Of a stretch of 64,000 bases of DNA, positions 1 to 36,327 are shown piece by piece. This stretch comes from Candidatus Omnitrophota bacterium. Lineage in GTDB: Bacteria > Omnitrophota > Omnitrophia > Omnitrophales > Aquincolibacteriaceae. Below the pieces are notes generated by a model that made no database searches, had not been told where the DNA came from, and saw only the letters and a list, made by a program, of their open reading frames with translations. The stretch covers positions 1,964 through 65,963 of the forward strand of contig DAOSLF010000008.1 in the NCBI GenBank assembly GCA_035368605.1. Reading direction: 5' to 3'. Every line of letters starts with the position of its first letter. Position 1 is the stretch's first letter. The position numbers and the translations under genes were made by a program.

Positions 1-2
1 TG

Positions 3-158: not shown

Positions 159-174
159 TCCCCAAAAACAAAAA

Positions 175-211
175 CTGAAAACAAAGCCCCGAACAAGGGA
201 CTTGTTTTCAG
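175..211. terminator. bidirectional rho-independent terminator between convergent genes
   Basis: Perfect 10-bp inverted repeat CTGAAAACAA...TTGTTTTCAG with a 17-nt loop. T-rich on the + side (ttttcaacc) and A-rich upstream, giving a T-run on the minus strand. Confidence 0.5.
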
Positions 212-214
212 TTT

Positions 215-496: not shown

Positions 497-502
497 CCCG
501 CC

Positions 503-9274: not shown

Positions 9275-11626
9275 TCAAATGTCGTCATGATGCGACAGGA
9301 CCTTGTGCTCATGGAAGGAGTCCCCTCCCCGGAGCTTCCTTTTAAAAAGCCGCTGCGGCCCAAAAGGCTTCAGCATCACGAGAAAGATCGGGAGCACGAG
9401 AAGCGAGCAAAGCAGCGCGAGGAAGATCGTGAGGCTCGTCAACACGCCGAAGTGGACGGTGATGCGGAAACTCGCGCACACGCTCGCCGCGAACCCGAGA
9501 CACAGGATCAGGGTCGAGAGCACCATCGACTGCCCCACGTTACGGTAGGTGTGATGCAGAGACTGAAGGTAATGGAACCGGTGGTGGAACTCCTTTTCGA
9601 AGCGATAGATGAACTGGATCGACGCATCGACCACAAGACCGAGGACGATACTCGCGATCATCGCGGTCGCGGTCGAAAGCTCGATCCCCGTGTAGCCCAT
9701 GAACCCGTAGACCGCGAGAATCGGGAAGAGGTTCGGGATTGCGGCCAGGAGTCCGAGCTTCACGGAGCGGAAGATCAGGGTGATCACGATCAGGATGGAA
9801 AGGAACGCGAAGATGAAACTCCTCGCCTGCTCATGGAGCAGGCTTTTCGAGATCTTCCCGAGAAGCACGACGTTCCCGGTGAGCTTGTATTCAAAAAAAT
9901 CGCTCAGACGCTCGTCCAGATAGGCCCGGATCCTGTCTTCGAGCGCCGCGCCCTTCGTCGTGCCGATCGCGCGCATGCGCGCCTCGATGCGGACCTCCCT
10001 GAAATCCGGCGAGATCATCTTCCAAAGCTCGGGGTCCCCTGATTTCGCCATCCCTTTGAAATAGAGTTTCAACAGCCCGGGGTTATCCGGGATCTCGTAC
10101 TTGTCATCATCGTCCGCCCGGGCCTCGTTGATCTTCTTGACGAGGGTCGTGATGGAGTTCACCTTGGCGATCCCATCTTCGCTCTCCATATAGGTTTTGA
10201 ACTCATCGAGCTTCCTCAGGGTCTTCGGATCGACCATGAGCTCGCCGTCCTTCCGCCGGAGAACGAACCCGAGAGAATAAACACCGGTCAGGTTATCATC
10301 GATGAATTTCGTCGCAATCGCGAGCGGAAGCTCCGGCTTCATCTGTTTGACGATATTCGTGTCAACCTCGATCCTCTTCACACCCTGGACGGAGAAGAAA
10401 ATGATGACCGCGGTCACGAGCAGGATCAGCCATTGCCAGCGGCTCTCGAGGTTCTCGATGAATTTGATCAGGACCCGGTTAAAGAAATGGCTTTCGTCGA
10501 AGGCGTCGACCTTCTTGGGGCGGTACGGGAGGATCGGCAACAAAAGGATCGTCAGGATGATCTCCACAAAATACGCGTAGAAGGTGCCGAGCGCGGCATA
10601 GAGTCCGAAGCTCTGGATCGCGGGGATACGGTTCAGGGCCAGCGACGCGAACCCGAGGATCGCCGTGAAATGCGTCAGAAGACATGGAAGCCCCAGCTGC
10701 TGGATCGTGAGCAGCACGGTTTCCCTGAGGCTCGCGTGATGCGGCCGGATTTCAAAAAACAGATTGATGAGGTAGGTCGCGTTCAGCACGGCGACAATCA
10801 TGATCACGGGAGCAAGGAGGGAGGTCATAAGATTCAGCTCCTGCCCGAGCAACGCGATCGTTCCGAGCGTCCAGATCAGCGTCGTGAAAACAATCGACAT
10901 GGAAAGGAACATGCAGGCGAAACTTCGGTAAATAAAAAAGGTCACCAGCACGAGAATGACGGTGATGATCGGAATGAAGACCATCTGGTCCCGGTGGATC
11001 AGATGGATAAACTCATATTGCTCGACCGGCGCGCCCGCCATATAGAACTTGAGGCCGGGCCGCTCAAAGTCATCCAGATACTCTCTCAATTGCTTAATGA
11101 ACACACCGTTCGCCGCGGAATCCTCGTCAGTCTTGAGATAGACGACAATATTCGCGATCTTGCCGTCACGGGAAACGATGTTGCTCAGGTAAAGCTCGTT
11201 CGAGAGGATGCTCTTCCGCATCTCGGCGACGCTCTTGTCGCCTTCCTCGACCTCTTTGAACGCCAGTTCCGTCTTGACGCCGAGGAATTTATGACGGATG
11301 TCCTGGGCATTCGCGAGACTGATCACGCGCTCCACGCGGTCGAAGCTCTGGATGCCTTCCGTGACCCGTTTCAGGATGCCGAAATTGACATCCGTGAAAA
11401 GGTCGTCGGTCGACATCGCGACCGCGATCATCTGATCGGAGCCGTACTTTTCGCGGTATTCCTGGTAGTACTTGTAATCGGCGGACTTCTTGATGAAAAG
11501 AGGCTCGATGGAGGGATCGACCTTGAGACGCAGGACCGCATTCCCCATGATGAAAAGGCTTGCGACCATGGCAAGCAGCATGGGCCAGCGGTAGCGGTCA
11601 ATGAATTCAGCTAATTTGCGGAACAT
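9275..11626 (-). CDS. RND-superfamily exporter (COG1033/MMPL-like, two 6-TM bundles with two large periplasmic loops)
   Basis: 783 aa. N-terminal LAEFIDRYRWPMLLAMVASLFIMGNAVLRLKVDPSIEPLF followed by a periplasmic loop. Two TM clusters of about 5 helices each. Architecture matches MMPL/HpnN-type transporters. Confidence 0.8.
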   Translation of the reverse strand: MFRKLAEFIDRYRWPMLLAMVASLFIMGNAVLRLKVDPSIEPLFIKKSADYKYYQEYREKYGSDQMIAVAMSTDDLFTDVNFGILKRVTEGIQSFDRVERVISLANAQDIRHKFLGVKTELAFKEVEEGDKSVAEMRKSILSNELYLSNIVSRDGKIANIVVYLKTDEDSAANGVFIKQLREYLDDFERPGLKFYMAGAPVEQYEFIHLIHRDQMVFIPIITVILVLVTFFIYRSFACMFLSMSIVFTTLIWTLGTIALLGQELNLMTSLLAPVIMIVAVLNATYLINLFFEIRPHHASLRETVLLTIQQLGLPCLLTHFTAILGFASLALNRIPAIQSFGLYAALGTFYAYFVEIILTILLLPILPYRPKKVDAFDESHFFNRVLIKFIENLESRWQWLILLVTAVIIFFSVQGVKRIEVDTNIVKQMKPELPLAIATKFIDDNLTGVYSLGFVLRRKDGELMVDPKTLRKLDEFKTYMESEDGIAKVNSITTLVKKINEARADDDDKYEIPDNPGLLKLYFKGMAKSGDPELWKMISPDFREVRIEARMRAIGTTKGAALEDRIRAYLDERLSDFFEYKLTGNVVLLGKISKSLLHEQARSFIFAFLSILIVITLIFRSVKLGLLAAIPNLFPILAVYGFMGYTGIELSTATAMIASIVLGLVVDASIQFIYRFEKEFHHRFHYLQSLHHTYRNVGQSMVLSTLILCLGFAASVCASFRITVHFGVLTSLTIFLALLCSLLVLPIFLVMLKPFGPQRLFKRKLRGGDSFHEHKVLSHHDDI

Positions 11627-13581: not shown

Positions 13582-15933
13582 TCACGGCCGGTTCGGCCGA
13601 TTCCGCGCTCCGGGATCTTGCCGCGGGAACCGGCTTGACTTCGGAGCCTCTTCGTAAACGGGGAGCGTCAGCGTGAACGTCGTCCCTTCACCAACCTTTG
13701 ATTTCACGGCGATGGTTCCCCCGTGCAGTTCAATGATGTATTTGCACATGTAAAGGCCGAGGCCGGAACCCTTGCCGGACGGTTTTGTCGTGAACCCGTA
13801 ATTGAAGATCTTTTTCCGGACTTCCTCCGTCATGCCGCCACCGTTGTCCGTGAAATAGATCGCGACCATCTTGGGGTTCTGCGCGTCGGGTTCCGCACGC
13901 ACCGCGATCTTCCGGTGACGTTTGCCCGCCATGGCGTGGTAGGCGTTGATGAACATATTAAGAAAAACCTCCTGAAGCCGTTCGAGGTCCCCCCGGATGA
14001 GCGGGATACTGCCCGGCACGTTGAAATCCACCTCCGTCCCGGACAGGTTATCCAGATAGGTCTGGAACTGGACAAGCGGCAGGGTCTCTTCGAGTATCAG
14101 CTTGAGCGAGAGCGGCTCGAACTTGCCCTTTTCCGATTTCTTGAGAAGTCCCGTCAGCGTATTCACCACCGCCTTGATACGCTCGACGTTCTTTTCCATC
14201 TTGTCGAAAACATCAGCGATCTCGGCCACCTTCACATCGGGATCCTTCCTGTATTTCAGGATCGCCCGCGACACATTCATCGAAAGGATCGTAAGAGGGT
14301 TGTTGACCTCGTGCCCGACGGACGCCGCGAGGCGCCCCAGGGTCGCCATCTTCTGTTCGTGGATCAGCTGCGCCTGCGCGTCCTGGAGCTGTTTGTTCGC
14401 GCCTTCCGCTTCATCCAACGCCCGCTCAAGCAGCCCGCGCGAACGTTCGAGCTGCTCGTTGATCTGTTCGAGATCGAGCGAGCGGCGTTTGGTCTCGTCA
14501 TAGAGTCTCGCGTTCTCGATCGCGATGGCGGATTCCTGGGCAAGCGTGCAAAGGAGGTTCAGGTCTTCGGTCGAATAGTATTCCCCCGATTTCTTTTCGC
14601 CGAGCAAGAGAATGTTTTTCAGCTCCCGCCCCAGGAAGCTCGGTACGCAGCAGGTCGTCTGAAGGTACATCATGCGATCGCGGATCGCCTCGTAATCCCA
14701 AACGGATCCCTCCGTTTTCTTCCGCCGGTACTTTACGTCTTCGATCTTTTCCCGGATGCGTTCAATATCGACCGATTCTTTGTGGTGCGCAATGTAGTCG
14801 ATGAGGGGGTCGTCCTCATTCAGAACCAGCGAGTAGAACTTCTTGTCGTAACCGCGCTGGTAGGCAAGGTTGAAATCATTGCTTTTCGGATCGCGGATCA
14901 GCACCGCGGCATTGCGAACACGCATCTTCATCGTCACGAAGTGGATGACGAGACCCAGCAAGCGTTCAAGCGACTCGATATTTGACATCCCGCGCGATGC
15001 GTCTTTCAGGAGCTTGTGATAATCATGTTTTTTCCGGAACAGGAACCTGTCCGTAAGGTTAGCCAGCAGCTTCCGCGCCGGATCGAATCCGAGCACCACA
15101 AGGAACATGACCGCGAACCGGGCCCAATAGATCTGGATTCCGGAATACGGATCGAGAAGCTTCTGAATGCCGAAGGTACCGAGAAGCAGGACCAGGGACA
15201 TGAAGCCCCAAAGCCCCGCGAAGATCACCGTATTCCTCAGAAGTTTTTCGATATCCAGGAAACGATACCGGGAAATCGAGCACATCGCAACGAAGCTGAA
15301 GAGCGCCACGCCGTAGGGGCCGTAAGGAAAAGGGAAAAACCCGAGGCCGTAGACAGGCAGGAAACAACCGATCCCGCCCAGATATCCGAGCAGGTTCGCG
15401 CCCGTGAAGAACAGGGCCTGTTTTTTCCGGGCTCCTTCAAAGCTCAGCGCGGCCCTGATCAAAATGGTATGGGTGTAGAAGACCGTCACGCAAGAGAAAC
15501 CGAACCAGGCCGTGTATAACTTCCCGGCATCCGGAAAAAAAGGGAACCCGAACTTGGACGAGACCCCCGAAAAAAAGAGTTGGGGAAAGAAAAGAATGAC
15601 CGCCAGAAAAAAAAGGGTGCTGATGTCAAAGGCGCGAACCACCGGCGTCGTCTCTTTCCGACCGACATAAACGCACGTGAAATGCAGGAAAAAGACGGGG
15701 ATCAGGGCGGCGCCGGCATGGAAAAGCTGGCTAAAAAAAAGCGAGGCCGCCGGATCCCGGACGGTCGTCGCCAGCAGAACGAAGATCGCCCAGAAAACGA
15801 TGGCGCTCCCGTAGTGGACGAACTTGCGAATGATGACCTGATTGCTGCCGCGGTAAAAAACGATCCCCACGAGGGTCAGATTGACTAGGGCGGTAAAGAA
15901 AGTGGCAAACTGGTAATGATTAGCGGGGCTCAT
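13582..15933 (-). CDS. sensor histidine kinase: N-terminal polytopic membrane domain + GAF + HisKA + HATPase_c
   Basis: About 8-10 N-terminal TM helices. GAF-like middle region. H-box HEVNNPLTIL. N/G1/G2 boxes (NAYHAM, DNGGGM, GSGLGL). 783 aa. Confidence 0.85.
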   Translation of the reverse strand: MSPANHYQFATFFTALVNLTLVGIVFYRGSNQVIIRKFVHYGSAIVFWAIFVLLATTVRDPAASLFFSQLFHAGAALIPVFFLHFTCVYVGRKETTPVVRAFDISTLFFLAVILFFPQLFFSGVSSKFGFPFFPDAGKLYTAWFGFSCVTVFYTHTILIRAALSFEGARKKQALFFTGANLLGYLGGIGCFLPVYGLGFFPFPYGPYGVALFSFVAMCSISRYRFLDIEKLLRNTVIFAGLWGFMSLVLLLGTFGIQKLLDPYSGIQIYWARFAVMFLVVLGFDPARKLLANLTDRFLFRKKHDYHKLLKDASRGMSNIESLERLLGLVIHFVTMKMRVRNAAVLIRDPKSNDFNLAYQRGYDKKFYSLVLNEDDPLIDYIAHHKESVDIERIREKIEDVKYRRKKTEGSVWDYEAIRDRMMYLQTTCCVPSFLGRELKNILLLGEKKSGEYYSTEDLNLLCTLAQESAIAIENARLYDETKRRSLDLEQINEQLERSRGLLERALDEAEGANKQLQDAQAQLIHEQKMATLGRLAASVGHEVNNPLTILSMNVSRAILKYRKDPDVKVAEIADVFDKMEKNVERIKAVVNTLTGLLKKSEKGKFEPLSLKLILEETLPLVQFQTYLDNLSGTEVDFNVPGSIPLIRGDLERLQEVFLNMFINAYHAMAGKRHRKIAVRAEPDAQNPKMVAIYFTDNGGGMTEEVRKKIFNYGFTTKPSGKGSGLGLYMCKYIIELHGGTIAVKSKVGEGTTFTLTLPVYEEAPKSSRFPRQDPGARNRPNRP

Positions 15934-16615
15934 GAGAAAAAAGACGCCTTAAAGCTTTCCAGGGAAACAAGGCTCTGGTCTCGTTCATGCACACAACATA
16001 AGATTCCCCTACCTTGCGGACATGGTTCCTTTCTTCTCCCGGGAGCCACGTGTACTGAAGCGGGATGTACAGGCAAAGAGCGAAAAGGAATCCCAGGATC
16101 GAGTTAAGAATAAGCGGAATGCTCAGGACCTCCAGGAAAATAGCCGCGCAAATCGGATGATGGATGTACCTGCAGGGCCCAAGGCGGATCACGCCCTCTT
16201 TGCTCGCTTTCCCGGCGCCGATCGCATGGACGGCCCACTGGCTTCCGAGCGCCTTCATCCCCCACCACCGCAAGCGGAAGGAAACGGCATAAAGGATCAC
16301 TCCGATCACCGTAATAGCCAGGGAAAGCGCGGGTCGGAAGATGAACCCCTCCGCACAGCTCAGAAAACAAAGAACAATGTAGGCCGGCGTTGTCGCGATA
16401 AGGGTCCAGTCGCCGTGCAACTCGCACGGACGCCGTTCCTTGGGCGTGTAAAACGTTTCCCACACCCTCTCAAATGAATGGAGGACAATGAAGACGAGAA
16501 AAAAAAGACGGAAAGTTCCTTTTTCGGAGAGGGCAAAGAAAATGCCGGCAAAAAACGGGACCCCCACCGCGCCCAAAAATGCCGGGGCCTGGATCCAGGA
16601 TGTTTTTTTTGACAT
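15920..16615 (-). CDS. ICMT/PEMT-family integral membrane methyltransferase (isoprenylcysteine carboxyl methyltransferase-like)
   Basis: Polytopic protein with C-terminal GVIRLGPCRYIHHPICAAIFLEVL matching the RHPxY...EE SAM-binding motif of ICMT/phospholipid methyltransferases. 231 aa. Overlaps the histidine kinase start by 14 bp. Confidence 0.6.
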   Translation of the reverse strand: MSKKTSWIQAPAFLGAVGVPFFAGIFFALSEKGTFRLFFLVFIVLHSFERVWETFYTPKERRPCELHGDWTLIATTPAYIVLCFLSCAEGFIFRPALSLAITVIGVILYAVSFRLRWWGMKALGSQWAVHAIGAGKASKEGVIRLGPCRYIHHPICAAIFLEVLSIPLILNSILGFLFALCLYIPLQYTWLPGEERNHVRKVGESYVVCMNETRALFPWKALRRLFSHEPR

Positions 16616-16619
16616 GATT

Positions 16620-17066
16620 TCAATCCCTCCGATGGTAGTCGGGGATCACGGCTAATATTTCCCCAGGGACCGGGGCGAACCCATTACGCAGGGAATCCAC
16701 GAATACGACCGCATACCCGGTCCTGCAAAAGAGATCGCCGCTGTTTTTCCGGTAGAACGAAACGATCATATCGAAACTGACGCGACCGATCTTGCCGACC
16801 GTCAACCGGGCCTCGATCGAATCGCCAAAACTCGCCCCCGGGAACATCTCGAGATTAATCTTGCTTGCCATCATCTTGATCGGGCGGGACGACACCTCCG
16901 GAAAACTATCGATCGTTGACTGGAAAAAAGCCTCCCGGACATAATTGGTCCACTCGTCAACGACGATCAGATCCACGGTTTTTTGGGCAAGGGAGATCGC
17001 TTCTTCCCCGCTTCGCGCGACCGGCACACGGCGCCTTGTTTTTTCAGCAACTGCCCGACCGAACAT
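16620..17066 (-). CDS. hotdog-fold (4HBT/YbgC-like) thioesterase; 5' region appears frameshifted relative to an upstream receiver-like start (see findings)
   Basis: C-terminal SFGDSIEARLTVGKIGRVSFDMIVSFYRKNSGDLFCRTGYAVVFVD matches 4HBT thioesterases. N-terminal VARSGEEAISLAQKTVDLIVVD looks like a receiver domain. A strong RBS+ATG at 17109 opens a receiver-like start (MPKTILLVDD) in another frame. Confidence 0.5.
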   Translation of the reverse strand: MFGRAVAEKTRRRVPVARSGEEAISLAQKTVDLIVVDEWTNYVREAFFQSTIDSFPEVSSRPIKMMASKINLEMFPGASFGDSIEARLTVGKIGRVSFDMIVSFYRKNSGDLFCRTGYAVVFVDSLRNGFAPVPGEILAVIPDYHRRD

Positions 17067-17216: not shown

Positions 17217-19403
17217 TCACGATCGCGGGAATCGGATCACAAACACAGAACCCTTCCCGGGTTCAGACTGGGCCGTAATCGAAGCCCCGTGACGTTTGAG
17301 GATTCCGAAGCTCACGGAAAGACCGAGACCGGTCCCTCCCCCCACATCTTTAGTCGTAAAGAAGGGGTCAAAGATCTTCTTAAGGTTCTCCTTTGAGATA
17401 CCGATGCCGTTATCGGTCACGCGAAGCTCAACCGCCTCCCCCGCCTCTTGTATGCCAACCACGATCTTTCCCGTACGCTTCGCGGCCAGGATAGCATCCT
17501 TCGCATTCACGAGGAGATTCGTAAAAACCTGTTCCAGCTCGCCGGAGATCCCTTTTACGGGAGGCGTGTCCACAAGCTCGGTCTCGATCGTGATATTCTC
17601 CTGCTGGAACTGGAACTTGAGGAGGGCAACCGTGCTTTTCACAACCTCCCGAAGGTCCGTGTCCTTCAGCGGGGATTCTTCCGCGGTCTTCCGGGCGTAT
17701 TTCATGAGCTTCTGCACGATCCCCTGACAGCGCTTCGCCCCCTCCTCGATCAGCGAGATCGATTCCATATCGTCTTCCCCCGCACTCATGCGGAGGATCT
17801 GGGCATTGGTGAGCACCGCCGTAAGCGGATTATTGATCTCATGCGCCACGCCGCCCGCGAGTGTGCCGAGCGTGGCAAGCTTCTCGGCCTGCACAAGCTG
17901 TTCCTGCATCTTCGCGAGTTCACGCGTCCGCTGATCCACCCTCTCTTCCAGGACCTGGTTCCAAAGCTGAAGTTCATCGCTCAGTTTCCGGATATCCTCA
18001 AACCGCACCGAATTCGAAAGGGCAATCGTGACGGGCACCTTGAGACGGTTCAGGAAGTGAATCTCGTTAAATCCGTAGCGGCGCAGGTTGCTTTTTCGGC
18101 CGAGATTCGCAAAGCCGATAAGCCGCCCTCCCAGAACAAACGGTAAAATGACCTGAGACTGTGTTTCCGCAAAAAACGACTCCAGCTCGGATTTAAATCC
18201 TCCCACCGCCGGATCGCTCACAACAAGCGTTCCGACCACGGCCCCGTCCGTCGCGGTCAGCCACTCCAGGAGCGGGCTATGCCCCACGACCGGGCGAAGG
18301 TTCCGTATTCCCTTTGCGATCGCGGGAAGGAATCTCTTGGTCGAATCGTCATAAAGATAAACGGAAAGGCGGCGGACAAAAAGCTCGTGGCGCAGCAGGC
18401 GCGCGAAGCTTTGGAGGAGGTCCCGGAGATTCTTCAGATGCACGAGCTCGGCCGAAAAGCGCTCGAGGACGGCCATCAGGTTCGTATGCTGCCGTTGAAA
18501 AAGTTTCCCCAAACGCGGCTGGACCGCCCGATAGTAGAAATAGAACACAAAGAGCATCGCGAGAAAATAAAGGCTCGCGGCCAACGGACTGAGGTCCGCC
18601 ATCATCGGCTGTATCGTATAAATGATACCGGCGAACGGAAGCACCGCGACTGCGCTCGTCGTAACCCACATCACCGTCATGTGAATCGCGGTCTCGATAT
18701 CCATGAGACGGTAGCGGATCACGCAGTACCCGATGATCGTCGTAAAAAGGAACATGGGAAGGAACGCAACGGGGAACGCACGGATGCCGTAATTGGGAAG
18801 ATATTCGATGGAACCAAGAAAGGCGATCGCATAGGCAATGAACATCAGCTTTGTGTTCTTCTTGAGAAGAGGTGCTTCGGCCTCGCGATGGATGCGCAAA
18901 AAATTCTTGAAGGAAAGGATCATGAGGGCGTAGAACCACACGATGAAAACGGCCTCAAGCGGTCCCGCCTTCGGGAAAAAGCCGGTCGGATACGGATACA
19001 TCCCTTCCACGATCCCGGGCGTCAGGCCGCAGATAAGGTAGAATCCGAGCGCGCAGAGGTAGTGGAAGACGATCCATTTCACCTTGCGCCTGAAAAGGCT
19101 GGCGTTCCAGGTCACGATGAAAAAGTACACGGCAGGCGTGATGAAGATGATGCCGAACCAGGTATACCATCGCGAGAAAACGGTCGCGACCGCCTCATCC
19201 GTCATCGAACACGCGATCCCGACGCCCGTGAGCCAGATGCCGGCCGTGACATTCGTCACCGTGTAGGCGATGTGCGTCACGGTCTTTTTCCCCTGAAAAA
19301 GCACAAAGAGCCCTTCGAGCGTGATCAGGACGCCAACGATGAAGTGAGGGAGGGCGTAGTTATTCCAGTAGAAAAGCTGCGGATCAAAAATAGAGTTCAT
19401 CAT
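17217..19403 (-). CDS. sensor histidine kinase: polytopic membrane domain + GAF + HisKA + HATPase_c (paralog of 13582..15933)
   Basis: About 10 TM helices at the N-terminus. GAF region. H-box [11 protein letters not shown]. HATPase G-boxes ([14 protein letters not shown]). 728 aa. Confidence 0.85.
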
Positions 19404-22046
19404 GATGGATGGCCCGGTTCATGACATCATGAAGGACGTTCATGTACTTTTCAACCTTTTCCCGAGGTCCCTTCATGCTCACCACGCCGACCCGACCTCC
19501 GTTCGCGGCGGGAAGGGAAAAATTGCTGAACGCGATAAATCCGTCCGTATGGACATCGCTCGCGGGAGCGACAAAAAAATCCGCTTTTTTTATGATCGTG
19601 ATCCCGAGCGAGCCGACGAATTCCTGAAGAGGCCGCATCAGGAATTTCGACGTGGCTTCGTAGAGAACCGCCGGCGCCGGCGTATAGGCTTCAAGGAGAG
19701 CGTAGCTTTCGCTCCTTCGCTTCCGCGTGGCGAAAAGCTGGCGGTTGAATTCCTGCTGAAACGCGAAGAAGCCGCGGTCGGGACGGTGTTTATCGAAATA
19801 AATACCGGGCCGTATGAAGATGAACCCGAGCGTCCGGCCGCGATCTCCTGCGGCTCGCAGATCGACGGGGATCGCGAACTTGATATCCTCGAACTCGCGG
19901 TATTGCGCCAACTTCCAGATCAATAGCGCCGCGGATGAAATCACCTGCTTGGCACGGCGGCCAAAGCGCTTGTTAAGCTCATTCCTCACCCGGAGAAACG
20001 GCCGGAAATCAAGGAACTGGTACGCGTGGAAGACGCCGCCGTCGCCCGAGGCCGTCGAACAGCGGTCCGGCACCATTCCCTCGCGATATCCTGAATCCGG
20101 AAACACAAACCCGCTGCGGACACCCCATTGTTTCTTAAGTTCGTTCAGGACCTCCTGGGAAGGGACGCCGTCCACCGGGACGTGACTGAACTGGAACCAA
20201 AGATCAGCCGAGCAAAGATCCGGTGTCATCCGGCATACGATGTTCAGGATTCCCGGTCCGGGATGCTTGGCGTCAAGGAACTGCGGCACCTGAAAACGGC
20301 TGGACGCTCCGATGGCAAGGGCCTGGGGAAGGATCTCAAAACGGACAAAAGCGGCGCTCAATATCCGGCCGCTGAAATCCCTGGCCCGCTCCTTCCATTG
20401 CACCGGAATGGCAGCGGACTTCCGGGAAAACCATTTCTTCCATTCCCGCGCGAGGAGGATCGGCCTTTGCTTGTCCGGCTTATCACCGGTCGCATTGTAG
20501 GCCTGGATGATCCCGTCAAGGAGGAGCGTTTTGAGATCGGCCGGCATCTCTTCAAACCCCTCACCCCCCGTTCCCGGATCGATCAGGGGTTCCAGACGAA
20601 CCAGTTTTCCGGATCCGTCAAAGTCGGCTTTTACGATATCCAGCAGGCCCTTTGGTTCCGCCTTCGCGCAAAACCGCCTCCACGCGAGCCGGTAGTGAAA
20701 CATCGGCTGTGACCGGAGGAACTTCGCGAGTCTTTGGATACAGTGCCGCTTGGCCGCCGCGGGGGACCGATCCCGATGATCCGGTGCGTCCGACCAGAAG
20801 TCGAGATCAAAAACGGCCAACGCGAACTTGGCCTGTTCGGTCCTCAGGTAGGATTCCGTCACCCTGCGCCAGCCGTCCAGTCCTTTTCCCGCCCCGGCTT
20901 TACGAAGCAAACCAAGAATCCTGACGATGGCAAAAAAGAACAGGGTTCCGAAATTCAGCCGGTCCGTGTAGCGATCCATCCGAAATTTACGCATGATGTA
21001 CGGGATGATCCGGGGACCGTGCGCCCGGATGCGAAAGATTCCCCGGGGTTCCACATACCCGTTCTTCCGGTACCAAGCGACCGCTTTCGCGAGCGTTTTG
21101 CGCAGCGGGGTCGCGGGATAACCGAGCTCCCGGACCGCTTTGGAACCGTCATAGGCGCCGGTCTTCAGGCAGAACCTGATGCCCTCGGTCGGCATGAGCG
21201 GTTTTTTCCGGAACGCATAATGCGAAAGGAACTCATCGATATACGTGAAGCAAAAAAGAGCCCAGTAAGGAATCCGGATTCTCGGTGCCCGGACCCCGGA
21301 AACTTGCTCCAGCGCGCGAAAGATCTCTTTAAGGGTCGGATGATCCGGGTTCGCGAGAATGTAACGCTCGCCGATCCTCCCCTGCTTTGCGGCGGCGATA
21401 TGGGCCTGGGCAACGTCATCGGCATCCGCCACGCTCCACCGGGTGTCAAAATACCCCGGATAGCTTTGATTCAGGAATTTGACGATCACATCGCCCGTCG
21501 GGGTGGGCTTGTGATCGCGCTCACCGATCACGATCGCGGGATTCAGGATCACCGCGGGAAGCCCTTTCGCGCAATACTTCAAAACTTCCTGTTCGGCCAA
21601 AAACTTGGAGCGGGCATAATGGCTTGCGCCGCGCTCCCTGAAACCGGCGCTTTCATCCGCGGGTTGCCCGTCGCTTCGCGCGTTGATCGTCGCGATCGTA
21701 CTGGTATGAACAAACTTCCGGACCCCGTACTTCAGAGAGGCCGACAGCATATGGACCGTGCCATCCACGTTGATCCGGTACATGGCTTTGGGGTTTTTGA
21801 TCCAGAAAGGATAAAAGGAGTAAAGGGAGGCGAGATTAAAAACGATCGAACATCCCTGAACGGCCGTTTCAACGGCCTGAAGGCTCGTAACATTGCCATT
21901 CACCACTTCAACATCAAGATGTTCGAGCAGGAGACTGTCCCGACGCTGGCGCACCAGGACCCGGACTTGATATCCGGCGGCGAGCAGATGACGGACAAGG
22001 GTCGAACCGATAAAACCCGTGCCGCCCGTCACCAGAACTTTCATGA
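19384..22046 (-). CDS. bifunctional fusion: N-terminal NAD(P)-dependent epimerase/dehydratase-type (CCR/3beta-HSD-like) reductase + C-terminal HxxxDG acyltransferase (WS/DGAT- or condensation-like)
   Basis: MKVLVTGGTGFIGSTLVRHLLAAGYQVRVLVR Rossmann motif with a YxxxK-type SDR core (YARSK). C-terminal about 430 aa carries FQFSHVPVDGVPS, compared with the HHxxxDG catalytic motif of wax-ester synthase/condensation domains. Start set at the internal Met at 22046; the 37-codon N-terminal extension was judged spurious. Confidence 0.55.
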
Positions 22047-22162
22047 TCTCAAACACCCCCGGAACAGACCGGGGGGCAACTCCGGGATGCCCCCGATCCG
22101 GATTCGCGTGACCGCTATCGTTTCCACGGGACCAAACCCCGGTTGGGAAACGCATCCCGCCA

Positions 22163-23740
22163 CTACGACTTCTCCGCCATTTTACCGATCGCGATGATCT
22201 CCTGATCGATCAGCTGCCGATGCCCCCAGAAAAAGGGCGCCAGGCGGAACCCGTGCTTGTTCGCAAGGCGGAGAATCTCATCCATCTTCTCTTTCGTGAT
22301 ATGTCCCTTCCCCCACGAATAATTCTCATACCGGCCTTCGAGCGCCAGGACCATGGCTTCGGAAAAACAACCGTAGAGCACCCTGCGAGACGGCAGTCCG
22401 ATATCGAATCCCGTATTGAACTCCACGGGAAGTTCGCAAATGCCGCCCGCGAAGATCAGGATGTCGTGACGGTCCGTTTCCGCATAAGCGATGTTCTTGG
22501 GATACCCGACGTCGCACACGATCGCGCCCGGTTTGAAGCTCGAGATCTCCACGATGGATTGCGGCGCGCTTGCGGCGGCGATCACGATATCCGCGTCCTT
22601 CACCGCATCGTTGTTGTCGTGGCTGCCGCGAAACTTCGCACGGCGAACGGCCTTGATGGCCCTCGCCATCTTCTTCAGATTATGCGGACTACGGCTCGTG
22701 ACGGTCACTTCCCTGGTCATCGAGGCAAGCACCCGCGCGCACGCACTGCCAATATCGCCCGCTCCGCCAATGACCGTGACCTTCGCCCTGGCAAGGTCCA
22801 CTCCCATGAGCCCCGCGGCCTTCACCACCCCTTCGACCGCCAGGGCGGCCGTAAGCGTATTGCCGGTCGTCACCGGAATCCGGACCTGTTTGAGGAATGA
22901 CTTCCCGAAGCGTTCTCCGGCGATCGAGGTAAAACCTCCCAGGGCCACGATCCCCAGACCATGACGTTCCGCCACCTTGCAGGAATCGACCACCTTCCGG
23001 ATCACGTTCTCCATATCGAGGGCCAGCATTTCGGGGATGATATTACAGACGATGAAAGCCCCGCGAGTCACCGCACCGCTTTCCGCCCGGAACTCCTTCA
23101 CATCGTACGAAACGTAGGAGGGCATGAGATCGAAGATCTTCGCGAGAAAGCCCTGGGACGGTAATTTAAAATCCGGATTGAAGGACCTGAGATAACTCAC
23201 GAGATGCTGGAAATTGTAGGGATGACCGATCACGCCGAATCCCGATACCGCGCGAAGCGGCCGGGTGCCCGCCTGACCGTAACGGCATTCAATGAGCGCA
23301 TTCTCGAAGGACCGGAGCAGGGTTTCGAAGAACCCGCGGATTTTCTCGGTGACCATTCCCCCGACGATCTGGTCCATAACCGGGATTCCGAGACGGATCG
23401 CCGCTTCCACCGTGATCTCCGTGCTGTCCGATGGCCCTTCCGCCAGGATCCAGCGTCCCTCGAAGCTCTCCAGATCACCTTCCAGTGCCCTGAACCGCAC
23501 GGTAAAACTCCGGTACTCGAAAAAAGCCTCTTCCCGCCATTGGATCGGCAATCCGTCTATCTGGACCTTCCAGGAGGTAACCGAGCGTTTCCGGTCACGG
23601 TCGACGATATGACACTCCTTGATGGCAGGTAACAGGGACGGGAAGTCCTCCACCCGCGTCAGCAGACGAAGAACCTGCCAGCGCTTCGCGGGCAGAACCC
23701 GGCTGATCTTGATAAAAGAACTGCTTTCTGAACCTGACAT
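22163..23740 (-). CDS. fusion of SRPBCC (polyketide-cyclase/START-like lipid-binding) domain with long-chain acyl-ACP reductase (AAR)-like domain
   Basis: N-terminal 150 aa has the SRPBCC pattern. The rest aligns motif-for-motif with cyanobacterial acyl-ACP reductase as recalled from memory: FGVIGH, ALGGFTSI, TTGNT, GGAGDIGSACARVL, DVGYPKNI, CFSEAMVLALEGRYENYSWGKGHITKEKMDEILRLANKHGF. Confidence 0.65.
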   Translation of the reverse strand: MSGSESSSFIKISRVLPAKRWQVLRLLTRVEDFPSLLPAIKECHIVDRDRKRSVTSWKVQIDGLPIQWREEAFFEYRSFTVRFRALEGDLESFEGRWILAEGPSDSTEITVEAAIRLGIPVMDQIVGGMVTEKIRGFFETLLRSFENALIECRYGQAGTRPLRAVSGFGVIGHPYNFQHLVSYLRSFNPDFKLPSQGFLAKIFDLMPSYVSYDVKEFRAESGAVTRGAFIVCNIIPEMLALDMENVIRKVVDSCKVAERHGLGIVALGGFTSIAGERFGKSFLKQVRIPVTTGNTLTAALAVEGVVKAAGLMGVDLARAKVTVIGGAGDIGSACARVLASMTREVTVTSRSPHNLKKMARAIKAVRRAKFRGSHDNNDAVKDADIVIAAASAPQSIVEISSFKPGAIVCDVGYPKNIAYAETDRHDILIFAGGICELPVEFNTGFDIGLPSRRVLYGCFSEAMVLALEGRYENYSWGKGHITKEKMDEILRLANKHGFRLAPFFWGHRQLIDQEIIAIGKMAEKS

Positions 23741-23915: not shown

Positions 23916-24521
23916 TTACTGTCTTTCGAGAGAGACCTGATCGATGAAGATGGTCCCTGTCTTGGGGTTCGAGTTGATGTCATCGAACACCACGACGAAC
24001 TCGTTCAGCGAATTCCAGTTCTCGATGCGGCGGAACTTCTCGAAGGGAATGCAGACCTTCTGCCACTGATCGGTGATATCGCTCACGATGTACGGAGATG
24101 CTTTTCCGGACATATCCTTGAGCTCAAGCTTCACGCGCTTCGTGTAGCCGGTCTTCGCATCACCCTTGATAAAGAAACAAAGGGTGTTGTACGGGGTCGC
24201 ATCCTCGCCATTCATTTTCATCCAGAACCCGTTATACGCGGGATTCGGAGAATCAACGTCATAATCCAGACGGATCGAATAGCCCGCCGGATCACCCTTC
24301 GCATCATCCGTCGCGAAGGACATCACCGTGCCCTGGGTATCATCGTTCGGATCCTTGTCCCACCCGCCGAAATCACCGCCGATATTGTTCGGCTTGTCAC
24401 CGGTATCAAAATCAGCGATCACAAGCTCTTCAGCCGCGAACGCCGTCGGGAGAGAAAATCCAAATCCCAGCACCATCAAACAAACTAGGGGCAAAGCAAC
24501 AGCAAGTTTAAACATCTTCAT
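23916..24521 (-). CDS. secreted protein with carbohydrate-binding-module-like beta-sandwich domain (CBM4/9/11-like)
   Basis: Signal peptide MKMFKLAVALPLVCLMVLGFGFSLPTAFA. Trp/Asp-rich beta-sandwich pattern (IADFDTGD...GGWDKD...FFIKGDAK...TIFIDQVSL). AT-rich promoter region upstream. 201 aa. Confidence 0.45.
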   Translation of the reverse strand: MKMFKLAVALPLVCLMVLGFGFSLPTAFAAEELVIADFDTGDKPNNIGGDFGGWDKDPNDDTQGTVMSFATDDAKGDPAGYSIRLDYDVDSPNPAYNGFWMKMNGEDATPYNTLCFFIKGDAKTGYTKRVKLELKDMSGKASPYIVSDITDQWQKVCIPFEKFRRIENWNSLNEFVVVFDDINSNPKTGTIFIDQVSLERQ

Positions 24522-24737
24522 TTTTTGTTGACTCCTTTTCTTGGAAATGTACTTCTGTGGCGAGGGTCGAAAGGAGTATACACGCTTATAAAAGTTTTTA
24601 CAAGAAAAGTCAGTGTTTTTGCAAAAAAAATCAGGCTAGCACTTTCTATCAATCTTATCATTAAATCATTTTAATTTTTTTGCTTTTTGTCTTTTCCCGG
24701 TCAACGCGGAGATATCCGAAGCGTTCACAGAAAAACC

Positions 24738-25034
24738 TCAAATAAATTCAAGGAGGGATTCGGTCAGCTGGGCTACGGGATCGGTGCGGATCAGTTCAAG
24801 CGCGGATTGCAGGCAACTGTCAATCCGGACACGCTCACTACCCACCATGCAAACCGCGAGATCGGCCCGCTGCCATTTATCATGATGACCGGTTTCGGCG
24901 ACTGAAACATTCCATCGCTCTCGAAGCCGGTCTTTCAGGCTCCTCAGAACCATCCTTTTCTCCTTGAGAGAGCCCGAAGAAGGGAGAATGATATGAACCC
25001 TTAGCAGTCCGATGACCGGATCGTGACTGATCAT
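24738..25034 (-). CDS. DUF503 (YlxP-like) family protein
   Basis: 98 aa. LLRVHIILPSSGSLKEKRMVLRSLKDRLRERWNVSVAETGHHDKWQRADLAV matches the DUF503 conserved core. Confidence 0.7.
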   Translation of the reverse strand: MISHDPVIGLLRVHIILPSSGSLKEKRMVLRSLKDRLRERWNVSVAETGHHDKWQRADLAVCMVGSERVRIDSCLQSALELIRTDPVAQLTESLLEFI

Positions 25035-25053
25035 GCGGCATCGCCGGAATGGA

Positions 25054-25653
25054 TTACACCTGAGAAATCGAGTCCGCGACCTCTCTCAGACGCCTGAGCT
25101 TCGAACGATCGTCATCGGACACAACCGAGCGCGAAATCTCGTTCAGGCCATTCTTGATCTCCTCGACCTTGGCCCGGCCGGCCTGGGAATGCTTGATCAG
25201 GGTATTGACATCGTGCGCAAGCTCGTGGAAAAAATCCCCTTCGCGCAACTTGACCTCAGTCACCGTCTCTCCCCGGTTCATTTTCAGAAGCGTCTGCCGG
25301 AGGCGGTGGATGGGACCCGCTACGCGGTGAAGAAAAACGATACCGTAACCACCGATAATGAGAAGCGTCACAATCAAGACAAGGGTGACCCGTATTATGA
25401 CGGCGTAGCTCACATCGGAGAGAATCTGGAGCGGGTTGATCTTGCCGAACTGCAGGCTATGACTCCCGAACGCCGCATCATAGATCGTCTGGTGGATAAA
25501 ATACGCGCAGGTGGCCGAGGCGACCATGAACAGCAGGATCAGCATGAAAGAGAATTCCCGCTGCATCGGCCGGTGGATGATGAAGTTCTTCACCTTCCGC
25601 TTGTACGGACGGTGTCCCTGCGCAGCAGTCTGAACGTTGGCGTTCGTATTCAT
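25054..25653 (-). CDS. small membrane protein with two TM helices and a HAMP domain (no output domain)
   Basis: Two hydrophobic helices (FMLILLFMVASATCAYFI and VTLVLIVTLLIIGGYGIVFL) followed by HRVAGPIHRLRQTLLKMNRGETV...DFFHELAHDVNTLI, a HAMP signature. Immediately downstream of the RND operon. Confidence 0.55.
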   Translation of the reverse strand: MNTNANVQTAAQGHRPYKRKVKNFIIHRPMQREFSFMLILLFMVASATCAYFIHQTIYDAAFGSHSLQFGKINPLQILSDVSYAVIIRVTLVLIVTLLIIGGYGIVFLHRVAGPIHRLRQTLLKMNRGETVTEVKLREGDFFHELAHDVNTLIKHSQAGRAKVEEIKNGLNEISRSVVSDDDRSKLRRLREVADSISQV

Positions 25654-25705
25654 CGTTATGTCTCCTTCCCTGCCCCGGAGGGGCGGTTAGAAATACCGCT
25701 GGATT

Positions 25706-28700
25706 TTATGTGTTTGTGCGGCGTTTATTGAACAAAAAAAAGCTTCCATCCCGGATGGCCGACACCCCCGCCTGGAGCAGATGCGTTATATCATCCACGC
25801 AAAGGACAAAGGCCGGAAGAACGAAAAGGGTCAAAATGGTTGAACTGATCAACCCACCAATAACCGTAATGGCAAGCGGGGCCCAAAGATCGCTCGCCTG
25901 GCCAAAACTCATTGCCATCGGGAGAAATCCGAGAACGGTCGAGGAAGTGGTCATAAAGATCGGCCGCAAACGGTCCATGCCCGCCATCGTCCACTTTTCC
26001 TCTTCGGGCATTGAGGTATCCAGATGCTGGTAGCGATCGACCAAAAGGATCGCCGCGTTCACGACATAACCCGCGAGCAGGATGATCCCGATAAAAACCT
26101 GCGTGCTCAAGGGGCGCGGCTGAGGCAGCCAGGTGATCCACGAGTCAGGTATCCCAAGCAGCTTAAGCGGCCACGTGATCAGCAGCGACCACCGCAGGGC
26201 AAGCCAGACCCCAATCGTTGCCATGGGAACCGTCGCCATGATCAGGGCCGGGAAGCGATAACTCTGGAAAAGGCACGCCATGACCATGAAGATCAGAAAA
26301 ACGGTCACCACGACGGCCAATCCGAGCTCGGATTTGCTCTGCATGAGCTCTTCAAATCCGCCTCCGAATCTCCAGTAGTAGTCGTCCGGAAGTTTTACAT
26401 CCTGGATGGCCTTTTTGACGTCCTTGGCGATGAGCTCGATCGGACGTTTTACGTCCCCCTTCACGAAGACATACCGGTGCTTGTCCTTCCGGTCAATGGT
26501 CTGAGGCCCGGTCGAAGGATAGAAATTCGCGATCTCGCTGATCGGGATCTGCGTGTTCTCCCTCGTTTCGACATAAATCTGTCCCAGATCCTCGAGCTTC
26601 TGCCGGTAGATCGCCTGGAGACGCGTGATCGTTTCGATCTCCTCCCCTTTCGAAAGCTCATGGAACTTCGTCGGCCGCATCCCGCGCACGAGCGCGTGCA
26701 TGCTGTCCGCGACGGATTTCACGGAAAGCCCGTACATCGCGGCCTTCCCCTTGTCCACGACAAGCGAATATTCGGGGCGTTTACGGAGGTCGGTCATCAC
26801 GAGGTTTGACAATCCGTCGACCTTGGACATGCGGTTGGCAAACTCCTTGGCGAGCCTTTCGAGTTCATCGCCGTCCTGCCCGTAGATATTGATGACCAGC
26901 TTCTTCGATTCGGAAGAACCCGCGCCCTCGTCCACGATCAGGCTGTAATCCGGATGGATCTCCTTGATCGCGGCATTCCCCTGTTCGTCGATCAGCTTCA
27001 TGATCTCATCCTTTGAGAATAGCCTCTTCCGCTGGGGTTTGAGACGGACAAAGAGCCGCAGGTCATCTTTCGAAACGGTCGTGGAGAAAAGCGTCACGTC
27101 GGGTATCTTGGAGAGCAGTTCCTCGATTTTCTGCATGGCTTCGTCGTTCGATTCAAGCCGCGCTCCCGCGAGCGGGAATGTGATAACCGCGAACTCGTTT
27201 TCCTCGAAGGAAGACGGCCAGTCGATCGGCGTCTTGGCAATCCCGAAAATCCCGAGGCAACAGGCGACCACCATAATCCCCACCACAAGCCAGCGGGCGC
27301 GGAAGACCCCGTGGAGCGCTCCTTGATAAAGATCTTTCATCTTATGGATGAAGCGATCCGAAAGAGTCTGGGTACGGGCATCGAGCTCGGCCACAGCGAA
27401 CTGCTTTATCAGCATCGGGATCAGCATCAAGGCCGAGAAAAAAGAGGCGATCAGCGCCACGCAGATTGTGAACGCAAAACCTCCGTAGGTCAGCTGAATG
27501 GTCTTGTCGATAAAAACGATCGGCAGAAACACGACCAGCGTTGTCGTCATGGACGCCAAAAGCGGGAGCCAGACCTCTTCGCTTCCGTCACGGATCGCAT
27601 GCGCCGCGGAGGCCCCGCCTTCCCTTTTGGAAAATATGTTCTCCATAATGACCACCGCGGTATCCACCAGGAGACCGACCGCCAGTGAAAGACCGGAAAG
27701 CGTCATCACGTTGATACTGATGCCCGCCGCCGCCATACAGATGAATGTGGCCATGAGAGAGGTAGGGATCACAACAAGGATGATCGCGGAAAGACGCCAG
27801 CGCATGATGTAAAAATAGATCACCCCCATGGTCAGGACCAACCCAATGAGCAGTGCCAGTTTGACATCATCGATCGCCCGTTTGATCGCATCCGCCCGGT
27901 CGTTGACGAAGACGATTTTGATCGAATCCTTGTGATCGGCCTCGAAAGCGTCCAGAACCCGCGTCAGGTCGTCGGCCACATCCAGCGTGTTCGCGAGACT
28001 CGCCTTTTTGACGTAGACCGTAACGTTCTGTTCCAGGTTGAGGCGGGCCTGGTCCGTCGCCTCGAGGTAGGAATCCTTGACCGTCGCGATCTCTTTCAGG
28101 GAAATGATCGATCCCTGTCGCGTCGCTTTCACGCCGAGCTCCCCGATCTCGTCCACGGTCAGGAACGACCCCATGCTCCGGATCGCGTACTCGTATTTTC
28201 CCGTCTCGACGTTCCCGGCGAGGAGATTGATGTTGCTCTGACCGAGTACGTCCATGACGCGCTCCACCGAAATGTTATAGGCCACCAGTTTGTCCCGGTC
28301 GAGTTCGACAAGGATCTTCCGTTCGCGTCCTCCGTAGACCTCGACGCTCGCGACGCCGTCCACGCGGCTCAGGATCGGCTTCAGCTTGATATCCACCATC
28401 TCACGGATCTGTTCGGGCGTCATGGAATCCGAGGTGACTGCGAACACGAGAATGGCCGCCTGCGCGTCGTCATAGTTGGCAATGACCGGCTTTTCGATCT
28501 CCTTCGGGAGAAGTGGCCGCACCCGCGCGAACTTCTCGCGGATTTCGAGCGCCGCGAAGTTCATGTTGGTTCCCGGTTCAAACTCCATCGTCACGCGGGA
28601 TTCGGCCTCGCGGGAACTCGAATAGAGGTTCTTCATTTTACTGACGGTCCCGACGGCTTCCTCGATGGGCTTCGTGATCATTTTCTCAACGTCCTGGGAA

Positions 28701-28867
28701 GGCAGACCGCCGCGGGCGCGGACCACGATGCTGACGATCCCCTGGCTCTGGCCCTGATAAAGCTCCACCTTGAGACGCATCAGGGAGATCATCCCGAGGA
28801 CAAGGACAGCGGCAAAGATGATGGCCGTAAAAACCGGCCGCTTGAGGGAGACGCTCGGGAGGCCCAT
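25706..28867 (-). CDS. RND efflux transporter permease subunit (AcrB/MdtC-like), second of tandem pair
   Basis: 1053 aa, 12-TM HAE-RND architecture with two large periplasmic loops. Conserved TM4 region (AAAGISINVMTLSGLSLAVGLLVD). Confidence 0.9.
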   Translation of the reverse strand: MGLPSVSLKRPVFTAIIFAAVLVLGMISLMRLKVELYQGQSQGIVSIVVRARGGLPSQDVEKMITKPIEEAVGTVSKMKNLYSSSREAESRVTMEFEPGTNMNFAALEIREKFARVRPLLPKEIEKPVIANYDDAQAAILVFAVTSDSMTPEQIREMVDIKLKPILSRVDGVASVEVYGGRERKILVELDRDKLVAYNISVERVMDVLGQSNINLLAGNVETGKYEYAIRSMGSFLTVDEIGELGVKATRQGSIISLKEIATVKDSYLEATDQARLNLEQNVTVYVKKASLANTLDVADDLTRVLDAFEADHKDSIKIVFVNDRADAIKRAIDDVKLALLIGLVLTMGVIYFYIMRWRLSAIILVVIPTSLMATFICMAAAGISINVMTLSGLSLAVGLLVDTAVVIMENIFSKREGGASAAHAIRDGSEEVWLPLLASMTTTLVVFLPIVFIDKTIQLTYGGFAFTICVALIASFFSALMLIPMLIKQFAVAELDARTQTLSDRFIHKMKDLYQGALHGVFRARWLVVGIMVVACCLGIFGIAKTPIDWPSSFEENEFAVITFPLAGARLESNDEAMQKIEELLSKIPDVTLFSTTVSKDDLRLFVRLKPQRKRLFSKDEIMKLIDEQGNAAIKEIHPDYSLIVDEGAGSSESKKLVINIYGQDGDELERLAKEFANRMSKVDGLSNLVMTDLRKRPEYSLVVDKGKAAMYGLSVKSVADSMHALVRGMRPTKFHELSKGEEIETITRLQAIYRQKLEDLGQIYVETRENTQIPISEIANFYPSTGPQTIDRKDKHRYVFVKGDVKRPIELIAKDVKKAIQDVKLPDDYYWRFGGGFEELMQSKSELGLAVVVTVFLIFMVMACLFQSYRFPALIMATVPMATIGVWLALRWSLLITWPLKLLGIPDSWITWLPQPRPLSTQVFIGIILLAGYVVNAAILLVDRYQHLDTSMPEEEKWTMAGMDRLRPIFMTTSSTVLGFLPMAMSFGQASDLWAPLAITVIGGLISSTILTLFVLPAFVLCVDDITHLLQAGVSAIRDGSFFLFNKRRTNT

Positions 28868-28870
28868 GCG

Positions 28871-32140: not shown

Positions 32141-32229
32141 CGCAAGCAGGATCCTGCCATTGGATTTGTCAGTCGCCCGTCAAAGCAACCTACGGTACCG
32201 TTAGCCCAAACAATGAAATTGAAACGGTG

Positions 32230-35829: not shown

Positions 35830-36327
35830 TTATTCCGGCATCTTGCGATACCACCCGTCCAAGGGCTCCGAGTCGCAGGCCCCGGAAGGGAGATCATAGA
35901 CATTGCCGCGGCGGTCGGGGGTTCCCGCCGGCACCAGACACACTGTCCGGACACTCCGCTTGTCCGAAGCCGCGATCACCGTTGCGGGCACGTCCTTGTT
36001 ATATGAAATATCCGCGTTCCTCGCGGGGAAGGTATAGGTCTTTTCGAACTGGTCGCGGTCGTAACAACCGTTCCCGATGATTGCCTCCCCGATCACCCCT
36101 TCCGAGTCGAGATGGCCCCACTTCGTTCCGGCGGGAAGGACACCTCCGTGCTCCTGGACGTAGATACGCAGGCAGTAGGACATGGCGCGCAACCCGGCGA
36201 TCGCGCTATCCGCCCGCTTCTGATCGGCGCCTTTCCGGAAATTCGGGAGCGCGAGCGAAGCCCCGATGGCAATGATGATGACCACCACGATCAGCTCCAG
36301 AAGTGTCAAACCGTTCTTACGCGTCAT
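35830..36327 (-). CDS. prepilin-type N-terminal cleavage/methylation domain protein (GspH/PilE-like pseudopilin)
   Basis: MTRKNG|LTLLELIVVVIIIAIGASLALPNF class III signal with Glu5. 165 aa. Last gene of minor pseudopilin module 1. Confidence 0.7.
   Translation of the reverse strand: MTRKNGLTLLELIVVVIIIAIGASLALPNFRKGADQKRADSAIAGLRAMSYCLRIYVQEHGGVLPAGTKWGHLDSEGVIGEAIIGNGCYDRDQFEKTYTFPARNADISYNKDVPATVIAASDKRSVRTVCLVPAGTPDRRGNVYDLPSGACDSEPLDGWYRKMPE

Follow-up and report, generated by a model that had tools for sequence, protein, structure and literature searches.

We analysed a 64,000-nucleotide stretch of contig DAOSLF010000008.1 from an assembly of Candidatus Omnitrophota (hereafter the window), in which a single minus-strand gene fuses a short-chain dehydrogenase/reductase (SDR) to a C-terminal domain that, by modelled fold and by motif, is a member of the coenzyme A (CoA)-dependent acyltransferase superfamily. 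Judged by sequence, this domain lies outside all the named families (WS/DGAT, carnitine acyltransferase, condensation, BAHD, and CAT). The gene sits between an AAR-like acyl-thioester reductase gene and a sensor histidine kinase gene, and its main interest is that it brings to light a family of enzymes without annotation and, in a phylum with no cultured member, a modular locus that apparently tailors aldehydes. An initial annotation had described a reductase joined to an HxxxDG-type acyltransferase in one minus-strand protein, a description with which the open reading frame (ORF), the domain matches, and the predicted fold all agree. The identical protein is already on record from Candidatus Omnitrophota, labelled merely as a “NAD-dependent epimerase/dehydratase family protein”, and a literature search found no published work on the acyltransferase family or on the cassette.

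The assignment of the C-terminal domain comes first from structure prediction. An AlphaFold2 (AF2) model built on 28 homologs was confident throughout, with a predicted local distance difference test (pLDDT) of 90.3 and a predicted template modelling score (pTM) of 0.91, and a Foldseek search of the PDB with this model returned 267 matches at E ≤ 1e-3. Nearly all of the best 50 of these belonged to the CoA-dependent acyltransferase superfamily or to condensation-type domains of nonribosomal peptide synthetases (NRPS). The top matches were carnitine/choline acyltransferases, i.e. rat CPT2 (1.2e-10), choline acetyltransferase (ChAT), CrOT, and CrAT, which aligned over ~600 columns with TMq values of 0.42–0.53 (0.53 for CrOT), and further matches included BAHD enzymes, TRI101, NRPS condensation/cyclisation domains, and the Marinobacter WS/DGAT 6chj (1.6e-8, TMq 0.37). 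In the model, the domain is built from two CAT-like lobes forming a pseudo-dimer, the arrangement that characterizes the superfamily, and its overall architecture is nearest to that of carnitine and choline acyltransferases. The CoA-dependent acyltransferase fold anticipated for the C-terminal region was thus recovered by AF2 and Foldseek together. By analogy with the rest of the superfamily, the donor would be a thioester, with acyl-CoA or an acyl-carrier as putative candidates.

The same comparison redraws the boundaries of the domain. Because the Foldseek alignments span the entire acyltransferase query, the region of about 250 residues previously read as an amphipathic linker corresponds instead to the front of an enlarged N-lobe, to which it supplies strands and helices; it is confidently folded and conserved in sequence, including DGWR and YLRTExxKF motifs. 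Once this region is counted with the N-lobe, the acyltransferase domain comes to about 551 residues rather than the 430 first proposed. A model of the full-length fusion (pLDDT 87.4, pTM 0.83) is compact and two-domained, a predicted arrangement that fits a hand-over between the reductase and acyltransferase active sites.

Sequence searches placed the domain in no existing family. Pfam yielded no match on the acyltransferase region, either for the full protein at E ≤ 0.1 or for both C-terminal halves at E ≤ 10, and none for distant family members; no NCBIfam model matched the region, and searching all PDB sequences with a profile of the family gave no match at E ≤ 10. What the sequence does retain is the putative catalytic motif SHVPVDG, which the initial annotation had pointed out and which is found where it was placed. 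Its His, Asp, and Gly are invariant across 28 homologs, and the corresponding residues H286, D290, and G291 (domain numbering, as for the other positions in this paragraph unless stated) are conserved at 98%, 99%, and 99%, respectively, in a set of 166 full-length domains taken from 50%-identity clusters. Conservation in both sets means that the motif is not a chance occurrence, and the His in particular is kept in orthologs and distant relatives alike. Also conserved among the 166 sequences are D279 (100%), W281 (98%), W375 (99%), and R58 (97%), along with many other Arg residues. The family consensus, HHvxvDG, is the canonical HHxxxDG of the superfamily, with Ser or another residue replacing the first His in the Omnitrophota branch, and the model places SHVPVDG between strand 277–284 and helix 291–305. 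Alignment with hhalign to E. coli CAT-I (a query sequence that we checked against PDB 1noc: same length, 1e-155) put His286, which is His621 of the full-length protein, on the catalytic His, and the DG on the DG of HHAVCDG; the hhalign probability was 21% with a shallow profile and 57%, with a pairwise E of 1e-4, using the 166-sequence profile. Farther downstream, the VISSAALLIWKL segment, which had been compared with the NDVVLA region of WS/DGAT, shows no conserved Asn-Asp, and only its Trp, W710 in full-length numbering and W375 of the domain, is conserved.

This acyltransferase family extends well beyond the fusion protein. When 1.84 billion representative proteins were searched exhaustively with a profile, 328 clusters (50% identity) were recovered at E ≤ 1e-3, and a genome scan for the family found 7 loci. 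Of the 166 domain sequences, ~105 stand alone as proteins about 500 residues long, 21 carry an N-terminal alpha/beta hydrolase, and 39 are fused to an SDR (36 from the Omnitrophota set, just 3 separate 50% clusters). Named sources fall within Omnitrophota and the PVC group, namely Omnitrophota, Kiritimatiellota, Lentisphaeria/Victivallaceae, and one “Planctomycetia” metagenome-assembled genome. Ten representative members are annotated as “hypothetical protein” at most, and elsewhere the names cover the fused domain alone. Distant members tend toward lipid contexts, which counts in favour of the ester route proposed below: an LCAT-like (PF02450) gene directly adjoins a family member in three loci (L010, L012, and L014), the family member is fused to a hydrolase in L013, L014, and P0044, and a patatin gene lies near P0045. 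The gene contexts of four standalone members (P0164, P0105, P0083, and P0063) revealed no recurrent partner.

At the N-terminus, the fusion is an extended SDR with the TGxxGxxG motif and the Ser/Thr-Tyr-Lys residues of that class. The initial annotation had called an extended SDR from its GGTGFIGS and YxxxK motifs, and the domain searches bear this out, with Pfam matches to Epimerase (1.3e-37), 3Beta_HSD (1e-26), and NAD_binding_4 (7.5e-19), and with G7, G10, G13, T114, Y143, and K147 invariant in 22 fused homologs (S115 adjoins T114). Its more specific CCR-like label gives way to an HpnA/3wj7-like one. The top NCBIfam model was HpnA (TIGR03466; 8.8e-104), whose cutoff of 367.65 bits was just missed at 346.9 bits, and the SdmB (sterol demethylase, 187 bits), OleD, and thioester-reductase models scored far below it. 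The nearest solved structure, PDB 3wj7 (1.5e-65), aligned over residues 3–330, the whole domain; we take it to be Gluconobacter Gox2253, reportedly an NADPH-dependent reductase of C7–C10 aliphatic aldehydes. Basic residues after strand 2 (R32 and K/R34-35) likewise suggest NADPH as the cofactor. All homologs of the fusion protein begin with MKVLVTGGTGF, and we therefore placed the start at the ATG at 22044–22042, with a G-rich stretch before it. The enclosing minus-strand ORF runs over 19384–22155, and a further in-frame ATG at 22155 is probably not used; the start first given, at 22046, was 2 nt off and out of frame.

Immediately upstream lies the gene that the initial annotation had called AAR-like, an identification upheld by matches to TIGR04058 (1.8e-51; at 175.5 bits, far under the cutoff of 449.7) and to PDB 6jzq (4.8e-42). 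The same product also matched the NCBIfam PigE model (1.9e-49; 168.7 bits, far under the cutoff) and PDB 4ppm (1.3e-28). Its putative catalytic Cys458, aligned with the catalytic Cys294 of the Synechococcus elongatus enzyme, is invariant in 12 AAR-like homologs. An SRPBCC (START-like) lipid-binding domain is fused to the reductase, and this SRPBCC/AAR-like fusion, found in 1293 proteins at E ≤ 1e-10 versus 45 clusters for the SDR–acyltransferase, is far more widespread in Omnitrophota. No paper linking AAR to SRPBCC was found in a literature search. Coordinates of these features are collected in Table 1.

Table 1 Features of the SDR–acyltransferase fusion gene and its immediate neighbours in the window.
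Feature	Nucleotides	Residues	Strand	Basis or remark
SDR–acyltransferase fusion gene	19384..22044	886 aa + stop	-	ORF and homolog starts
Extended-SDR NAD(P)H reductase domain, HpnA/3wj7-like	21052..22044	1-331	-	
GGTGFIGS glycine motif		7-14	-	SDR cofactor site
YARSK catalytic Tyr/Lys motif (Y143-x3-K147)	21604-21618	143-147	-	SDR translation
Two-lobed HHxxxDG-type acyltransferase domain	19387..21039	336-886	-	AF2 model, Foldseek
Acyltransferase N-lobe		roughly 336-660	-	model
Acyltransferase C-lobe		roughly 661-886	-	model
SHVPVDG, putative catalytic motif (His621, Asp625, Gly626)	20167..20187	620-626	-	translation, conservation, hhalign
ISSAALLIWKL		702-712	-	segment downstream of the catalytic motif
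SRPBCC (START-like) lipid-binding domain + AAR-like acyl-thioester reductase	22163..23740		-	upstream of fusion; Pfam Polyketide_cyc, Shikimate_DH
Putative catalytic Cys458 of AAR-like protein	22367-22369	458	-	aligned with Cys294 of S. elongatus AAR (6jzq)
7TM-GAF-HisKA-HATPase sensor histidine kinase	17217..19403		-	downstream of fusion gene

The arrangement of these genes recurs across related genomes. We surveyed 80 metagenome loci and two others and tallied what comes after the AAR-like gene in the 76 loci whose contigs continue for 1.2 kb or more beyond it, a set that includes near-duplicate contigs, so that the counts are not independent. A HisKA_7TM histidine kinase comes directly after the AAR-like gene in 45 of the 76 loci, while 12, the window included, have the fused SDR–acyltransferase followed by the kinase where the contig reaches that far. 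Two loci (L065 and L087) carry the SDR and acyltransferase as separate genes, two others (L020 and L043) a class-III aminotransferase and a 379-residue GNAT followed by the kinase, and 10 have other inserts and then the kinase; no kinase was seen in the remaining five. These other inserts are a radical-SAM enzyme, a GMC oxidoreductase, an SDR alone, an SDR with a GMC oxidoreductase, and a toxin-antitoxin pair with a B12-radical-SAM enzyme. In this last case (L076, L077, L082, and L091), the pair is MNT/HepT (a nucleotidyltransferase and a HepT RNase) and lies between the AAR-like gene and the B12-binding radical-SAM gene, with the kinase downstream. Directly or past a variable insert, the kinase thus follows the AAR-like gene in 71 of the 76 loci and is its most constant neighbour; in the window, the last 20 nt of the fusion gene are shared with the beginning of the kinase gene.

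In turn, every SDR-linked acyltransferase with visible upstream sequence had the AAR-like gene there, and split, adjacent SDR and acyltransferase genes were also seen in L003/L009 and L011. In L020 and L043, the aminotransferase, whose top NCBIfam model in L020 is PigE (481 bits), occupies the same slot as the SDR–acyltransferase, and together with the GNAT it would convert an aldehyde to an amine and then to an N-acyl product, paralleling the conversion of aldehyde to alcohol and then to an O-acyl product proposed here. Since the SDR and acyltransferase occur both split and fused, the AAR-like gene is their constant partner, and an aminotransferase-GNAT module parallels them, the enzymes in the slot appear to work on the aldehyde produced by the AAR-like reductase.

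Taken together, these observations point to a route from acyl thioester to aldehyde, alcohol, and finally ester, run by the two genes with the fusion enzyme acting after the AAR-like reductase, a reading to which we give about an even chance. In the first step, and by homology, the AAR-like enzyme would load a fatty acyl thioester (acyl-ACP, where ACP is acyl carrier protein, or acyl-CoA) on Cys458 and, using NADPH, reduce it to a fatty aldehyde, with the hydrophobic chain probably held by the SRPBCC domain. The SDR domain, through Thr114, Tyr143, and Lys147, would then reduce the aldehyde to a primary fatty alcohol. Lastly, as fold and motif suggest, His621 would act as general base, activating the hydroxyl of the alcohol so that it attacks an acyl thioester and forms an ester; a long-chain donor would give a wax ester, and any other a short-chain or acetate ester. 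This sequence of three steps, first put forward in the initial annotation, is supported by genomic context, by conserved catalytic residues, and by gene order, whereas we infer the product (a wax ester or another ester), the substrates, and the acyl donor, be it acyl-CoA or acyl-ACP and of long or short chain.

Several observations weigh against this route. The first His of HHxxxDG is a Ser in the fusion protein, HpnA, the top family match of the SDR, has no assigned function of its own, and the likeness of the SDR to sterol and OleD ketoreductases makes a keto substrate possible. With the kinase right after the AAR-like gene and no SDR–acyltransferase in 45 of the 76 loci, the SDR–acyltransferase module must be considered accessory, and standalone members of the acyltransferase family occupy unrelated contexts. 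Storage wax esters also answer no obvious need of ultra-small Omnitrophota cells.

The constancy of the kinase raises another reading with compatible chemistry, in which the cassette makes a lipid-derived signal that would be sensed by the translationally coupled 7TM kinase, with lineage-specific modules, among them the SDR–acyltransferase, the aminotransferase with GNAT, the GMC oxidoreductase, and the radical-SAM enzymes, tailoring the aldehyde. We consider this unlikely, if worth a serious hearing. It would account for the kinase in the 71 loci, for the variable content of the slot, for the 20-nt overlap of the kinase start with the end of the fusion gene, and for the response-regulator and methyltransferase genes that often come next. 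However, a kinase regulating membrane or lipid homeostasis would equally predict co-location, wax-ester-like products diffuse poorly, and many of the loci counted are near-duplicate contigs. A more specific version, in which the AAR-like enzyme and the 7TM kinase form a synthase-sensor pair, interchangeable slot modules diversify a fatty-aldehyde signal, and the fusion is the ester-making variant, strikes us as quite unlikely.

Other genes around the kinase are recorded here in their own right. Response-regulator and SAM-methyltransferase genes often come after the kinase, and in the window a second, paralogous 7TM histidine kinase of 783 residues (13582–15933, minus strand), kept in L015, L011, and many metagenome loci, lies farther downstream. 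Between the two kinases (15920–17066, minus strand) are genes for a 148-residue 4HBT_2-type thioesterase and a 231-residue ICMT/PEMT-like membrane methyltransferase, which might be a pair for fatty acid release and methyl-ester formation; in L052 the cassette is followed by weak homologs of both, and in L057 by a weak homolog of the thioesterase.

The acyltransferase fold could also serve another use than ester formation, such as CoA-free lipid transacylation, hydrolysis, dehydration, or non-catalytic lipid binding, which we think improbable. The Foldseek matches do include non-canonical superfamily members, namely the dehydratase AzeD (8s6l) and a heterocyclisation domain (5t3e), lipases and LCAT-like transacylases are found as fusion partners or neighbours of distant relatives, and Ser replaces the first His of the HH pair; yet the near-total conservation of the motif His, Asp, and Gly favours canonical general-base chemistry, and the conserved Arg residues fit binding of a phosphorylated thioester carrier. 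Least credible of the readings weighed here is that the SDR is an HpnA/3beta-HSD-type ketoreductase or epimerase acting on a hopanoid, sterol-like, or sugar substrate, that the acyltransferase acylates its product, and that the AAR-like neighbour is unrelated, since against the HpnA and SdmB scores, the Pfam 3Beta_HSD match, and an MMPL/sterol-sensing-type transporter encoded at 9275–11626 stand an HpnA score under its cutoff, an AAR-like gene that always adjoins the SDR–acyltransferase where the upstream region is visible, a transporter that is HAE3 and not HpnN, and no squalene-hopene cyclase (shc) or other hpn gene among the scanned genes of the window. We accordingly rejected a hopanoid link, the MMPL protein being HAE3 and no hpn genes appearing among the neighbours scanned. 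This minus-strand transporter of the MMPL/HAE3 family has a sterol-sensing-domain-like match, and its score against HpnN was 71 bits versus a cutoff of 751.

Elsewhere in the window, an operon-like run upstream of the AAR-like gene (23916–35719, minus strand) encodes an outer-membrane factor, a HlyD-type adaptor, and two tandem AcrB-type RND pumps, together with a 199-residue membrane protein, a DUF503 protein, and a 201-residue secreted protein with weak CIA30/CBM-like matches. We rejected this efflux run as part of the cassette, its synteny with the 199- and 201-residue genes being found only in a close clade (15 of 47 loci). Three large minus-strand ORFs at 36317–39808, 43726–47235, and 47236–50745 encode proteins of 1163, 1169, and 1169 residues with no Pfam match; the two 1169-residue ORFs are in tandem, and the large ORFs adjoin a type II secretion/type IV pilus-like locus (N_methyl pseudopilin, T2SSF, secretin, and PilM). 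Also on the minus strand are genes for a response-regulator-PAS-GGDEF-EAL protein (4286–6448) and a DUF11/CARDB-repeat surface protein (7657–9129).

If the route from acyl thioester to ester is correct, the fusion defines an unannotated family of HHxxxDG acyltransferases whose members are now labelled “hypothetical” or only “SDR/epimerase”, and the cassette would represent a natural two-gene route from acyl thioester to ester, of use to wax-ester and fatty-alcohol-ester biotechnology. It would also open a way into the unusual lipid chemistry of Omnitrophota, an uncultured phylum for which our literature search found no report of wax esters. In addition, the variable slot beside a 7TM sensor kinase raises the possibility of lipid-derived signalling, and if the signal interpretation were true, the cassette would belong to a lipid-signal system not recognised before, in a phylum that is uncultured and possibly host-associated.

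Compared with known systems, the acyltransferase domain resembles the carnitine/choline acyltransferases (PF00755) in size (~550–600 residues), in its enlarged helical N-lobe, and in the mid-sequence position of the His in an xHxxxDG motif, those enzymes using an EHSxxDG-type motif. It differs from them in giving no sequence match to PF00755 even at E ≤ 10, in being bacterial and fused to an SDR, and in showing no sign of a quaternary-amine acceptor. With WS/DGAT (6chj; PF03007/PF06974), it has in common the superfamily fold, the HHxxxDG consensus, and the same proposed reaction between a fatty alcohol and an acyl thioester. In contrast to WS/DGAT, however, it has no Pfam match and no recognisable NDVVLA-type motif, is ~100 residues larger, and aligns to these enzymes with a TM-score of 0.34–0.37, below that of carnitine acyltransferases; moreover, we know of no WS/DGAT that is fused to an SDR. 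Single-polypeptide fusions of a reductase and an acyltransferase occur in ether-lipid pathways, namely Tetrahymena TtFARAT and myxobacterial ElbD, whose acyltransferases are of the GPAT/AGPAT (HX4D) type with an unrelated fold and which carry FAR-type or thioester-reductase-type reductases.

The AAR-like neighbour has its own parallels. It has the AAR fold and catalytic Cys in common with the cyanobacterial AAR-ADO alkane pathway, but no aldehyde-deformylating oxygenase was seen among its neighbours, and the predicted fate of the aldehyde is reduction and esterification, not deformylation. PigE, from the prodigiosin pathway, joins an AAR-like domain to a class-III aminotransferase, and its N-terminal region matches the AAR-like neighbour. 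The logic is alike, a thioester being converted to an aldehyde that is then tailored by the next enzyme, whereas here the reductase bears an SRPBCC domain, the context is not that of a pyrrole pathway, and the proposed tailoring would be reduction and O-acylation rather than transamination.

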